From positions 149,668,001-149,732,000 of the forward strand of contig OZ024743.1 of assembly GCA_964016885.1 (NCBI GenBank): a stretch of DNA of 64,000 nucleotides. The letters run 5' to 3'. This DNA comes from Eledone cirrhosa. Lineage: Eukaryota. The position numbers and the translations under genes are program-made. This document shows positions 4,224 through 62,567 of the stretch, in pieces. The notes beneath the pieces were generated by a model that was not told the DNA's origin, did no database searches, and worked only from the letters and a program-made list of their open reading frames with translations. Within the stretch, counting starts at the first letter, position 1, and every line of letters begins with the position of its first letter.

Positions 4224-6158
4224 CCTGTGTCAGTGTTGAACAAAAAGGTGACGTGGTTGCCTTAACACCGTATGGCATAAATTCAGGCTGTTCAGTTTGT
4301 TTACAAACGAACAAAGCGACGTTAGCGCCGCTAAACTGATACGTGCATATATGTATGTGTACCTGTATGCATATGTATATATATATGTATATATATATAT
4401 ATATGTGCATGCTACTGTACGTCTGTATACATATATGTATGTACGTATACATGCATACTTACATTTAAGTAAGTGCCATACTAAGAGTGAGAAATGAAAT
4501 TTCGTTTTCATTTTGTTTCAATTTATCGTTTTCGGTATGCCTGACCGATTTAACTCACTCAATATGCAAATTAGGCTGCTCAGCCGTTAATTTTCATAAG
4601 TAAAGTATATACTTTCGAACGTTCAACTATCTGGCAGATGGGTAAACGGTGCTGATGATAGCTAACAAGCTTGAAACTAGTACATCGTTCCTGTGTCAGT
4701 GTTGAACAAAAAGGTGACGTGGTTGCCTTAACACCGTATGGCATAAATTCAGGCTGTTCAGTTTGTTTACAAACGAACAAAGCGACGTTAGCGCCGCTAA
4801 ACTGATACGTGCATATATGTATGTGTACCTGTATGCATATGTATATATATATGTATATATATATATATATGTGCATGCTACTGTACGTCTGTATACATAT
4901 ATGTATGTACGTATACATGCATACTTACATTTAAGTAAGTGCCATACTAAGAGTGAGAAATGAAATTTCGTTTTCATTTTGTTTCAATTTATCGTTTTCG
5001 GTATGCCTGACCGATTTAACTCACTCAATATGCAAATTAGGCTGCTCAGCCGTTAATTTTCATAAGTAAAGTATATACTTTCGAACGTTCAACTATCTGG
5101 CAGATGGGTAAACGGTGCTGATGATAGCTAACAAGCTTGAAACTAGTACATCGTTCCTGTGTCAGTGTTGAACAAAAAGGTGACGTGGTTGCCTTAACAC
5201 CGTATGGCATAAATTCAGGCTGTTCAGTTTGTTTACAAACGAACAAAGCGACGTTAGCGCCGCTAAACTGATACGTGCATATATGTATGTGTACCTGTAT
5301 GCATATGTATATATATATGTATATATATATATATATGTGCATGCTACTGTACGTCTGTATACATATATGTATGTACGTATACATGCATACTTACATTTAA
5401 GTAAGTGCCATACTAAGAGTGAGAAATGAAATTTCGTTTTCATTTTGTTTCAATTTATCGTTTTCGGTATGCCTGACCGATTTAACTCACTCAATATGCA
5501 AATTAGGCTGCTCAGCCGTTAATTTTCATAAGTAAAGTATATACTTTCGAACGTTCAACTATCTGGCAGATGGGTAAACGGTGCTGATGATAGCTAACAA
5601 GCTTGAAACTAGTACATCGTTCCTGTGTCAGTGTTGAACAAAAAGGTGACGTGGTTGCCTTAACACCGTATGGCATAAATTCAGGCTGTTCAGTTTGTTT
5701 ACAAACGAACAAAGCGACGTTAGCGCCGCTAAACTGATACGTGCATATATGTATGTGTACCTGTATGCATATGTATATATATATGTATATATATATATAT
5801 ATGTGCATGCTACTGTACGTCTGTATACATATATGTATGTACGTATACATGCATACTTATATTTAAGTAAGTGCCATACTAAGAGTGAGAAATGAAATTT
5901 CGTTTTCATTTTGTTTCAATTTATATATACATATATCTACATATATACATATATGTGTATATATATATATATAATATATGTATATATATATATATATATA
6001 TATACATATATTCATATATGTGTATATATATATATATATACATATATATATATATATATATATATATATATATATATATATATATATATATATATATATA
6101 TATATATATATGTACATAAATGTATATATATACATATATGTACATATGTATATATATA

Positions 6159-7054
6159 CGAGGGCAATCCTAAAAGTAAGGTCTCCAAAGCGATGTGGAC
6201 GCAGAGAAACTGTTCGTACGGTTGTTGGCAACACTGTTGTAATTGGTGCTTCCTTCACTCCCAAACAAGCATGCGCCCGCTTCGCTGGGATGCTCAATCT
6301 TAGCTTGGCAGCCGTTGAGAGTAGAGCTCCCGTTGAACGCTACCGCCCAGTGTGACTTCGCTCAGTTATTCGGTTTCTGAACGTAAAAGGCATTGAACCG
6401 ATTGAAATTCATCGGCAATTGACGGATGTGTATGGACAGTCGTGCATGGATGTCAAAAACGTTCGCAAGTGGTGTAGAGAGTTTACTGCCCGTCGTACTG
6501 AAATTCACGACGAACAAAGGAACGGGAGACCGTCAATTTCCGACGAGACAGTCGCAAAGGTTAAGGAAAACATGCGCACACCTTCTGATATTGCAACTTT
6601 TCCGTTAAAATCCTGTGGATGCTGTTTCGGGAAACATCAGGAACCAAAATGCAGAGAGCATCCAGAGTGATCCGCCGATCTTTACTCATGTTTTCCTCAA
6701 CCTTTGCGACTGTCTCGTCGGAAATTGTCGGTCTCCCGATCCTTTGTTCGTCGTGAATTTCCGTACGACCGGCTGTTTATACACTTCCGTCAATTGGCGA
6801 TGAATTTCAATCGGTTCAACGCCTTTTGCGTTCAAAAATCGAATAACTGAGCGAACTTCGCACTTGGCGGTAGCGTTCAACGGGAGCTCCATTCTCATCG
6901 GCCGCCAAGCCAAGATTGAGCATCCCAGCGAAGTGCGCGCATGCTTGTTTGGGATTGAAGGAAGCACCAATCACAACAGTGTTGCCAACAGCCGTACGAA
7001 CAGTTTCTCTGCGTCCCCATCGCTTTGGAGACCTTACTTTTGGGATTTCCCTCG
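6159..7054. mobile_element. Mariner-derived fold-back element (two inverted copies of a mariner 5' end), TA-flanked
   Basis: TIRs cgagggcaatcctaaaagtaaggtctcc / ggagaccttacttttgggatttccctcg; both arms encode a decayed N-terminal HTH (EVRSVIRFLNAKGVEPIEIHRQLTEVY; VRKWCREF...DEQRNGRPS). Confidence 0.88.
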
Positions 7055-7063
7055 TATATATAT

Positions 7064-7210
7064 AGTGAAGGCGTGCGGTTGATAAGTTAGAGAACTGGAT
7101 TCGCAATCGTGAGGTTGTCCGCTCGATTCCTGGACCAGGCGACGCGTTATGTCCTTGAGCAAGACACTTTATTTCACGTTACTCCTTCTACCTGGAGTTT
7201 CGACCGATAG
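7064..7210 (+). mobile_element. tRNA-derived SINE 5' portion
   Basis: A/B-box-like head (ggttgataagttag...gctcgattcc) followed by gtccttgagcaagacacttt; related copies at 13866, 22322 and 63283. Confidence 0.8.
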
Positions 7211-59999: not shown

Positions 60000-60300
60000 T
60001 TTAGATTATATATATAATATATTTATATTATATATATATAATATATTTATATTATATATATTATATATTTATATTATATATATAATATATTTTTATTATA
60101 TATATAATATATTTATATTATATATAATATAATATATTTATATTATATATATAATATGATATATTTATATTATATATATAATATGATATATTTATATTAT
60201 ATATATAATATGATATATTTATATTATATATATAATATGATATATTTATATTATATATATAATATGATATATTTATATTATATATATAATATGATATATT
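60000..60300. repeat. AT-rich minisatellite, 27-bp unit in the distal part
   Basis: (ataatatgatatatttatattatatat)n; gives the MIYLYYIYN repeat ORF. Confidence 0.9.
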
Positions 60301-62363
60301 TAAATTTTATATATATATATATAAATATATTGTATATATATAATATAATTATATTGTATATATATATATTATGTATATTATATATATATATATTATGTAT
60401 ATTATATATATATATATTATGCATATTATATATATATATATATATATGATGACATATAATATATTTATATTATACATATATACTATAATGTATATTATAT
60501 ATATCATATATATATATATATATATATCTTTTATATATATATATCATATGTATATATATATCTTTTATATATATATATATCATATGTATATATATATCTT
60601 TTATATATATATATATCATATGTATATATATATATGTATATATATATATATCATATGTATATATATATATATATATATATATATATATATACATATATTT
60701 CAGGTATTTTATGTATATTTGAACACGTTATTAAATTTGTATATGCGACCACACACACACACACACACACACACACACACATACATTTGAACGCGCGGTA
60801 TATTATAAAATAGAAGCATAGAGGTTCGGTTTTCGTTTGTTTATTTGTACGCCAATGCTTTTGTTTGCCTTAGAATGTGATAGTCTCGTCTGCTGCATAT
60901 ACGGTATGGATGGACAAACGGTTGTGAGATGGATTGACATTAAGTAATGAAACAAAACGAAAATACGTAGAATAATAAATAAAAGTAAGACAAAATATAA
61001 CATAGAGGAGGGGGAGATCAAACGGGGTATATTCGGTAGGCGTAAATGTGACAGCTTGTCTATATGTATGTAGTCCTAGACGTCGACACAGGGAAAATTC
61101 AGTGTCCACAATTGCTTGCAGGAATGAAGCGAGAGTGGAAAAGAAGGAACGACGGAAAGAGAAAAAAAAGCGAATAAATAAATAAACGTATACATGACAG
61201 CCACGTGGGGAAGGAGAGAAAAAAATATATAAAGCAATAAACATGGATGAAACACATCCTGGCTAGCAAACTGATTTTTTCCCTTTCCGTTAATGTCCGT
61301 GTTTAAGGCGTAATTCTTCGTGCCTACGTCTCGAGTTACGCATCCTTACATTCATTCTTTGCCGAAAGACAGATTATACATGTATGTTCGTATGTATGTA
61401 TATTTGATTAGTGTGTGTGCATATAGCTATGTAATATAATATAATATATATATATATATATATACTATAAAATTGTGTCTAATTATTACTTTTGATCAAT
61501 TATCTGGCTACTTAACCGGTTATTGAAAATTACTCTATTATTATTCAATTTTGATTGTTAACTATATATATATATATATATATATATATATGTATGTATG
61601 TATTTGTATATTCTTTCTGTCCCTACGATCATAATTTTGTATTAAATATTTTGATTCTCAGTAGTTTGGCCCGTCCAGTTTACATTTCATCACAAGCTAA
61701 ATCGAATATCTTTATGGTGTATGTATATGTATGTATGTATGTATGTATGTATGTATGTATGTATGCATACACACATATGTACGCATTTATACGGAGAGAT
61801 TGATATACACCATCTATCTACCTATCTATCTATCTACCTATCTATCTATCTATCTATCTATCTATCTATCTATCTATCTATCTATCTATCTATCTATCTG
61901 TATTTGTCTTTGTCCCCTTCTTTTGTGCCCCTGTGGCTAATAAAGAAATATATCTATCTATCTATCTATCCACACACACACACACACACACTTATACATA
62001 TATATATATAAAACACATTTTCAGTTATATTGTGTACATTGTCTCTGGGTACTTATTAAATTATAAAATCTTTCCTATCTACATACATGTAAAATCTGTA
62101 TATAAAATATACATTGCGAAATGTTTGGAAGTGGCTTGCCTTGGGGTCCAGGGAGTTAAGAATTATCACTACACGACTTGATTTCTTCATCACCACTGTA
62201 TTTTCTAGAAATTCGTCTTATCCTGACTTTTTTTTTCCATGGATAACTAAAACACTAGTATTGCAAACATTCATACAGCATTTCAAGGCATATTTCATCT
62301 CAGTATCTGTACAGGTTTATGCATAATTGTAGTTAGAAATATATATATATATATATATATATA

Positions 62364-62567
62364 TAACGAAGGAAATGTGGTAAGGAACTAGATCGACCAT
62401 AACGCACCAAAGTACTCAATACTTAGGGTAGTAGAGCGGGTAATAGGAACGAGTAGGACCCCGACGGCTGAGCTCAAGCCGTTTCGACGGCTAATTCTGG
62501 ACGCGGAGTCCAGAATTAGCCGTCGAAACGGCTTGAGCTCAGCCGTCGGGGTCCTACTCGTTCCTAT
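62364..62567. mobile_element. Fold-back insert: perfect 60-bp arms (62443-62502 / 62508-62567) plus long-arm tail on minus; family of 9598-9776
   Basis: Exact reverse complement around a gcgga loop; TA-flanked. Confidence 0.92.

Follow-up and report, generated by a model that had tools for sequence, protein, structure and literature searches.

Penelope-like elements (PLEs) are the sister group of telomerase, and the way in which their inverted insertions are built up has been called open (PMC8557442, PMC11167929). Penelope of Drosophila virilis, the Penelope of Adineta vaga and Naiad carry an inverted pseudo-long terminal repeat (pseudo-LTR) and a tail of 30-40 base pairs (bp) that is described as 'often' present on one side or as 'optional', and in the passages covered these descriptions give no structure at the start of the tail (PMC8557442, PMC3846280, PMC2377424). 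We analysed a window of 64,000 nucleotides (nt) from Eledone cirrhosa (OZ024743.1), in which separate copies of several repeat families stop at the same two end points. These end points are almost certainly the tail signature of PLEs, present here as many families, mostly of the Hydra clade together with non-coding derivatives, lying head-to-head in (TA)n. The two fixed ends as such correspond to the established PLE tail; novelty seems to lie in the near-strict pairing of the two ends within each insertion, the longer tails, a helix at a fixed spacing from one end, and PLE-type ends on a retrozyme array.

The closest experimental system is Poseidon of Anolis carolinensis, an anole PLE for which both strands of an AT-rich target are cleaved and extended in vitro from two internal starts; these lie 3' of the hammerhead, bound the tail, match the genomic tail ends and need no homology with the target, and a dimer is predicted (PMC11167929). 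Poseidon belongs to another clade than the elements described here, its start site carries an AC-rich stem-loop instead of a bulged helix at a fixed distance, and the passages covered report no pairing of the two starts within one insertion, unlike what we find (PMC11167929). The Hydra clade, which includes one family listed from Octopus bimaculoides, resembles the present elements in its C-terminal endonuclease without two cysteines (CxxC) inside GIY-YIG, in a conserved E and N that are flanked by CxxC and CxH, and in its canonical hammerheads and (TA)n targets (PMC8557442). Consensi of the clade comprise 21 Repbase families and six in file S7 of PMC8557442. Non-LTR retrozymes are tandem arrays of non-coding units, each with a type I hammerhead, whose proposed dependence on PLEs is argued from co-occurrence and phylogeny (PMC7229834; bioRxiv 10.64898/2026.07.22.740005).

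The window has a GC content of about 31%, roughly a quarter of it is TA-type microsatellite, and it holds several Tc1/mariner remnants. We took as an end the last base ahead of the simple repeat, called the short end site S and the long end site L, and defined the tail as the family sequence between S and L that is borne by one arm. Five families were compared: A (the 466-bp unit), B (9598/62364), C (27897/47670), D (26061/45141/15836) and, added in this analysis, P (661/9920). Ends were chosen from BLAST matches and by eye and were mapped onto one reference per family. Thirty ends were mapped, and three were dropped ahead of the count (48954, a tandem duplicate of 48828; 50944, in a diverged relative; and a lone family E end). 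Two 7-nt bins per family hold 25 of the remaining 27, the left end at 15836 and one family P long end falling outside them. Ends placed uniformly at random gave a mean of 13.7 and a maximum of 20 of 27 within bins, and ends placed only at TA-like positions a mean of 15.5 and a maximum of 23 (20,000 draws each). For family A the short ends at 1925 (-) and 48828 (+) both map to reference position 166 and the long ends at 5921 (+), 48467 (-) and 44278 (-) to 224, 224 and 229. The corresponding short ends of family B (9600, 62564, 22289) map to 58, 58 and 59 and its long ends (9775, 62366, 39010) to 138, 138 and 140; those of family C map to 163, 163 and 165 (28358, 47670, 44157) and to 253 twice (27898, 47993). 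Family D short ends (27885, 45141, 16048) fall at 284, 280 and 281, its long ends (26061, 45328) both at 360 and the aberrant end 15836 at 130, and family P has short ends at 177 and 178 and long ends at 236, 240 and 245. Single-arm copies stop at either site, for instance at S in 22289 and 44157.

An earlier, sequence-only reading of this DNA had proposed two defined end points per family, set by a mechanism and not by artefact or duplication, and had named a broad spread of junctions, or copies with common outer flanks, as what would speak against it. Aligning the ends family by family within the window gave two clusters that are tighter than both random expectations, and outer flanks are common to none of eight copy pairs. 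Since, additionally, the central junctions differ between copies, these are separate insertions and not segmental duplications. All end motifs quoted in that reading are present, 0-4 nt from the coordinates assigned to them. Its copies at 48830 and 48956 go back to a single event, 48871-48956 repeating 48745-48830 across a TA tract. The observation is real and mechanistic; the reading had arrived anew at the tail and at a large part of how it is explained in print, and the PLE tail went unrecognised.

That no mechanism is involved, and that we are looking at assembly fold-backs, segmental duplication, or microsatellite slippage and deletion halting at TA-like spots, is a scarcely tenable explanation. 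The local duplicate just described is of this kind, repeats of the last 12-13 nt at the long end of insertion H show that slippage or re-priming occurs locally, and in family A the bases immediately upstream of S are TA-like. However, none of the eight pairs has common flanks, the clustering exceeds the TA-like expectation, and the two arms of one insertion diverge by up to about 14% (more when gaps are counted), unlike fold-backs of reads. A helix conserved at fixed spacing across unrelated families and the agreement with published PLE anatomy also count against this explanation, which is already largely refuted.

We then examined how the two ends are distributed within insertions. A sensitive search for inverted matches within 4.5 kb, which arms shorter than about 30 nt would escape, returned 27 rows: 14 head-to-head insertions, two mariner elements, six matches internal to insertions, one match between separate P copies, two short hairpins and two simple-repeat pairs. 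Insertions A1 (filtered out of this search) and A2 (largely masked) were added, giving 16 insertions from 11 families (Table 1). In all 16 mirror-image insertions the extension is on exactly one arm, the left in eight cases and the right in the other eight. Were the ends of the two arms chosen independently of each other, the probability of 16 discordant pairs would be at most 0.5^16, about 1.5e-5. The only symmetric elements from the search are two mariner-type DNA transposons, which demonstrates that it was able to detect symmetry. The claim of one end of each type per palindrome is therefore borne out without exception in these 16, and the claimed internal spacing of 50-90 nt is similar but somewhat narrow, tails measuring 56-112 nt in 14 of the 16 and about 160 nt, with an ill-defined end, in F and H. 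These lengths exceed the published 30-40 bp, and a one-sidedness published as frequent or optional is found here in 16 of 16 insertions, with one additional inversion that is off-site (PMC8557442, PMC3846280, PMC2377424). The label 'short arm' used in the earlier reading is true of the outer end and not of arm length, as the tail-less arm is the longer one in 1925-5921 (2149 vs 1848 bp). In the literature searched, which left aside older Penelope reviews, the 2004 endonuclease paper and most subscription papers, we found no description of a strict S/L pairing rule or of the bulged helix reported below. A one-of-each rule that is near strict constrains any model of the insertion reaction.

The orientation of the arms follows from their ribozymes. 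A hammerhead descriptor found 21 cores in the window compared with 0-1 per shuffle (10 shuffles). In A1, C1, D1, E and I each arm carries cores, and all of these point outward; the outer ends thus correspond to the 3' sides of the RNA and the centres to points of 5' truncation. By our own descriptor a type I hammerhead is present in the terminal repeat of families A, C, D (with a variant core), E and I; the same descriptor found no core in B, whose copies are truncated inside the motif, nor in F, G, H, J and P. Rfam gave no hammerhead among the matches listed (150 of 619) or in 27700-28400, and its matches were microRNA families below cut-offs, driven by TA repeats and perfect palindromes. The variant core of family D has A in place of the usual second U and occurs at 26202 (-) and 27820 (+) in the arms of D1 and at about 15985 (+) in D3. 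A further hammerhead-like core at 37905-37982 (+) is tied to none of the insertions studied.

Both ends are internal to the RNA. The 466-bp unit continues past L in all seven internal copies of the array, the family E tail does likewise at 23597, and in the five families measured a ribozyme cut is predicted 21-249 nt upstream of S; L is therefore not an RNA terminus. The earlier reading had placed one of two defined priming sites at the terminus, which these observations contradict, while two starts bounding the tail have indeed been shown in vitro for the anole PLE (PMC11167929). The internal site had been attributed to TA-like microhomology. Microhomology at the short end amounts to 0-5 nt (mean 2.2) and exceeds a random-phase null when all 16 insertions are used (P 0.011), but not with one insertion per family (P 0.15), and it fails a best-phase null in both settings (P 0.34 and P 0.78, respectively). 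Microhomology as the cause of S is unconvincing after these tests.

Reading the tails side by side, we noticed a helix near their start. Its four outer pairs are formed between R(C/G)UC and GA(G/C)Y; a pyrimidine bulge of 1-2 nt follows on the 3' strand, and further inside there are more pairs around a loop domain whose size varies. A descriptor of it, run over the whole window on both strands, gives 33 rows. The helix is present in 9 of 16 insertions and 8 of 11 families, and starts 7 nt past S in H, D1, E, J and I, 8 nt past it in C1 and C2, 9 in B1 and 13 in G. It is absent from the A, P and F tails, and B2 and D2 fail the strict descriptor. Shuffled regions yielded it in at most two families (3000 trials), the best of all comparable descriptors reached at most five (150 shuffles), and on the antisense strand it occurs in none of the 11 families. 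In an alignment of 13 rows (12 distinct), all 70 of 70 cells are paired and four of six pairs have changed on both sides. A covariance model trained on 13 rows yielded four additional, weak matches; one of these, 59439, folds into the helix. Outside the set used for its design, the descriptor led to an unlisted element at 36017 (-), entered as M in Table 1.

The helix is also visible in published elements. We read six published Hydra consensi by eye in the supplement of PMC8557442, three helix cases being located by means of five 8-nt motifs; these motifs occur at 17 places there, 14 of them in non-Hydra files, and served for locating the Hydra cases alone. The helix is clear in three of the six, Hydra-2_Amil from a coral and Hydra-1_Ajap and Hydra-2_Ajap from a sea cucumber, where it lies 3' of the hammerhead or at the tail start; the bulge of the two sea cucumber consensi is UA instead of two pyrimidines. 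Hydra-1_Crog has a variant, and in the Hydra-1_Amil and Hydra-1_Obim consensi of that supplement the helix was not seen. In the main text of that paper, the words 'stem-loop', 'hairpin' and 'bulge' are absent (PMC8557442).

For the process that builds these insertions, we lean towards a model of two coupled priming events, one at S and one at L. In this model the GIY-YIG endonuclease of the element would cut both strands of a (TA)n target, and each cut 3' end would prime reverse transcription inside the RNA. One start would be at S, 7-9 nt 5' of the bulged helix, and the other at L, the 3' foot of the structured tail, 56-112 nt beyond S; in four families L lies 24-64 nt past the helix. The helix may be a landmark to which protein binds, with its distance doing more to set S than base pairing does. 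Coupling of the two starts, for example by an asymmetric protein dimer on one tail domain, would give one S and one L per event. The far ends of the two 5'-truncated complementary DNAs (cDNAs) would then be joined, either bluntly or through a short stretch of self-complementarity, and filled in.

The anatomy of the arms bears on a single-priming alternative. According to it, reverse transcription is primed only at L, and the 3' end of the cDNA snaps back, copies itself as far as S and joins the second target end. One S and one L then arise automatically, and all 16 insertions are explained without coupling; the centres of F, I, B2 and D2 lie within short palindromes or native hairpins, the inverted arm of the young D1 is contained in the main copy (411 columns, 99.8%), and self-priming has been proposed for inverted junctions of PLEs (PMC3846280). 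However, the tail-less arm holds family sequence that is missing from the tailed arm in P1 (616 vs 100 bp), in C2 (about 120 nt) and in A2, so that neither arm, as it stands, is a copy of the other, and fold-back would demand a later deletion in each. The longer tail-less arm of A1 would likewise demand a later deletion or the gain of a unit, and the centre of this young array shows no microhomology. Short ends also exist on single arms, S-type starts have been observed directly on RNA in vitro (PMC11167929), and the weak microhomology does not account for a stop 7-9 nt from the helix. Overall we consider fold-back an unlikely route.

Trimming by the endonuclease is another explanation to which we give little weight. 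Here L is the starting point of both arms, and at a later stage, when the intermediate is resolved, one copy is cut by the endonuclease at the AT-rich S, the helix being read in single-stranded or cruciform DNA. This is the older, published suggestion for the tail (PMC8557442), and PMC11167929 cites the tail as a requirement for the endonuclease to recognise Penelope DNA; moreover, S sites are AT-rich and the copy at 23597 begins exactly at S. Nevertheless, two reverse-transcription starts have been mapped directly at the tail boundaries of the anole PLE (PMC11167929), the G-U pairs of the helix suit RNA, and trimming requires a rule by which exactly one copy is trimmed.

Several points weigh against the model of two coupled starts and the part it gives to the helix. 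The evidence is limited to DNA sequence from a single 64-kb window, and unequal arms could stem from later deletions at palindrome centres. The long ends of F and H are ill-defined, and the seventeenth inversion, D3 at 15836, breaks the rule of one S and one L, its left piece ending at neither site and overlapping briefly with the right arm. The earlier reading had grouped D3 with the regular copies; its right arm does stop at S, but it has no long arm, and the left inverted piece ends about 150 nt upstream of S. The helix descriptor was written after the tails had been seen and also served to select the aligned rows; complete pairing is thus partly so by construction, and the two-sided changes are more telling. 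Only 7 of 14 motif-bearing sequences have the helix in their minimum-energy fold, tail folding energies are ordinary (z < -2 in 1 of 19), and matches of the covariance model beyond its training set are weak (E 0.07-2.1). Because A, P and F pair S with L without a helix, the latter is not a general cause of the pairing. Finally, no strand difference in start site was seen for the anole PLE, which taken alone predicts some symmetric insertions (PMC11167929).

D3 deserves separate mention. In LINE-1 twin priming, the second target strand primes internally and an inversion results; the pieces lie side by side in one RNA without overlap, and the position of the internal site varies. In the insertions described here, by contrast, the two arms are copies of one segment and start from two fixed sites. 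The inverted piece of D3 (15836-15890) adjoins the main arm instead of mirroring it, and D3 resembles what we take to be twin priming of the LINE-1 type.

The identity of the elements is best seen in D1. Its endonuclease remnant, 27474-27100 (-), has 1406 relatives at E<=0.001 (best 3e-19), two of 12 scanned relatives match GIY-YIG in Pfam, and its translation has no cysteines inside GIY-YIG and has CxxC and CxH flanking the conserved E and N, as in the Hydra clade. Pfam gave no match in the frames tried for D1, family E, 38520-38900 and 16400-18750, and the D1 remnant, used as query in a word-indexed protein search, gave no match. The truncation of D1 lies downstream of the CxCx5C linker, which two of four inspected relatives possess, and of the reverse transcriptase (RT) motifs RWK and DKT. 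P1 contains an endonuclease C-terminus of the type encoded by the open reading frame (ORF) at 16519-18695, which among named relatives is closest to an RT protein of Octopus vulgaris (52% identity, E 6e-155) and has many further unnamed relatives; this ORF is a possible kind of helper. D1 fails to align with the octopus RT protein (P0001), which places D and P in different PLE lineages, and in going with a different RT-endonuclease ORF family P is unlike the Hydra clade (PMC8557442). Remnants of an ORF joining RT and GIY-YIG are traceable in D and P; no ORF is seen in the nine remaining families, and the paired insertions contain no RT sequence. D1 is the only insertion with testable coding sequence, and the remaining Hydra-clade families would belong there by virtue of the common helix. 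The paired insertions do lie in (TA)n, and they have the form of PLE pseudo-LTRs, a 5'-truncated inverted copy attached head-to-head, with orientation given by hammerheads and ORF remnants. A Tc1/mariner origin of the 16 insertions was rejected in view of their asymmetric ends, hammerheads and endonuclease remnant; symmetric terminal inverted repeats abutting TA, together with transposase, occur only at 6162-7051 and 14218-15019.

Family A is a non-coding tandem of 466-bp units with nine hammerhead cores at 466-bp spacing, and the three units compared differ by 0-1 base. The unit length falls within one published retrozyme range, 51-972, and just above another, 150-450. Self-cleavage is predicted at 4216 and at equivalent positions of the array. 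Judged from its sequence, family A fits retrozymes as defined in bioRxiv 10.64898/2026.07.22.740005. Whereas two retrozyme accounts give co-occurrence and phylogeny (PMC7229834; bioRxiv 10.64898/2026.07.22.740005), we observe a head-to-head array with the same pairing of S and L as the other insertions and with PLE-type ends common to separate copies, which is junction-level support for PLE proteins moving retrozymes.

A bolder reading, to which we give somewhat less than even odds, is that one cis-acting RNA helix, as yet undescribed, is common to the Hydra-clade PLEs of cnidarians, echinoderms and molluscs. Built of four outer pairs, a bulge of 2 nt on the 3' strand and a variable inner domain, it would act as a ruler fixing one start 7-9 nt upstream, and an asymmetric dimer would start the two strands at opposite sides of the tail domain. 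If so, the dimer would make one short and one long end a rule, would explain head-to-head PLEs, and would let retrozyme arrays be written into DNA from both ends. With its constant spacing from one start, the conserved helix offers the existing in vitro assay a well-defined site to mutate, and it is also a handle for locating non-coding Hydra-clade elements and their boundaries in invertebrate genomes.

Table 1. Coordinates of the insertions and related features in the window (S, short end; L, long end; + and -, strand).
Feature	Coordinates	Strand	Description
A1	1925..5921		head-to-head array of 466-bp hammerhead-bearing unit (retrozyme); left arm 1925-4073 (-) to S, right arm 4074-5921 (+) to L
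A1 tail	5864..5921	+	58 nt; no bulged helix, other hairpin present
A2	48467..48828		second family A insertion; tail left 48467-48522 (-), S right; 48871-48956 local duplicate of short end
A3	44278..44330	-	third family A fragment; stops 5 nt beyond L; inner boundary approximate
B1	9600..9775		S left, 80-nt tail right (9696-9775); helix 9704-9727 (+)
B2	62366..62564		80-nt tail left (-), S right; centre within hairpin
B3	38908..39010	+	single-arm copy, L end; helix 38937-38960
B4	22289..22320	-	small single-arm copy, S end; inner boundary approximate
C1	27898..28358		90-nt tail left (-), S right; hammerhead on each arm; helix 27980-27962 (-)
C2	47670..47993		S left, 91-nt tail right; helix 47910-47929 (+)
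C3	44094..44157	+	third family C fragment, S end
D1	26061..27885		5'-truncated PLE (26061-27474, -) with 76-nt tail and inverted terminal repeat (27475-27885, +) with S end; helix 26130-26085 (-)
D1 endonuclease remnant	27100..27474	-	broken GIY-YIG with Hydra-clade marks, two frames
D2	45141..45338		S left, tail right (L at 45328 plus 10 extra nt)
D3	15836..16048		exception; right arm to S, left inverted piece ends about 150 nt upstream of S
P0	661..1208		63-nt tail left, S right; no helix or hammerhead found
P1	9920..10635		100-bp tailed arm left; 616-bp tail-less arm right, beginning in endonuclease C-terminus
F	11695..12118		S left, long extension right (159 nt, end ill-defined)
G	22589..23553		S left, 106-nt tail right; helix 23460-23509 (+) with compensatory change
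H	24007..24429		long extension left (-, about 160 nt), S right; helix 24162-24094 (-)
E	28592..31550		2.9-kb mirror insertion; S left, 92-nt tail and A-rich linker right; helix 31445-31484 (+)
J	31570..31685		66-nt tail left, S right; helix 31629-31610 (-), 1-nt bulge
I	32213..32406		S left, 68-nt tail right; hammerheads back to back at centre; helix 32345-32363 (+)
M	35920..36200	-	single-arm element located by helix descriptor; hammerhead-like core upstream (by eye), tail up to TA tract
E-like monomer	23597..23830	+	begins at S, ends in short-site-like sequence; helix 23603-23642; one hammerhead
RT and C-terminal endonuclease ORF, broken	16519..18695	+	PLE related to family P; outside the paired insertions

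Some insertions and single copies have further peculiarities. At 28592-31438, E is a 2.85-kb mirror repeat of 94% identity with mirrored microsatellites and an inner tandem, and between its long end and the TA tract lies an A-rich linker (31531-31550) that is possibly an untemplated addition. The E-like monomer of 234 nt has the shape expected of one lap round a circular RNA; it begins exactly at S, and its tail is common with family E (92%), while the hammerhead region is different. At 38800-39010, the hammerhead region of an E-like element directly adjoins a fragment of family B with which it is fused, through either a nested insertion or a template switch. Partial direct tandems at 10674-11526 and 15299-15762 have a last unit that stops at a TA tract and a first unit that continues, like a short end without an inverted arm. 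The repeated sequence at the long end of H recurs four more times within 23850-24020, with TA tracts of varying length between the copies; this may reflect slippage, or repeated re-priming reminiscent of repeat addition by telomerase.

The window also contains repeats outside the paired insertions. Tc1/mariner remnants lie in TA tracts at 6162-7051, 12495-13750 and 14218-15019, all three with Pfam support, and at 20516-21780; the first consists of two transposase 5' halves face to face. Another broken PLE occupies 7200-9370, where a GIY-YIG match (E 4.5e-7) precedes a long AC-rich region that contains short direct repeats and ends at a TA tract. Fragments of one short interspersed repeat, presumably a short interspersed nuclear element, occur at 7060-7220, 13863-13993 and 22330-22440, as found by sequence comparison, and at 63270-63390, as recognised by eye.

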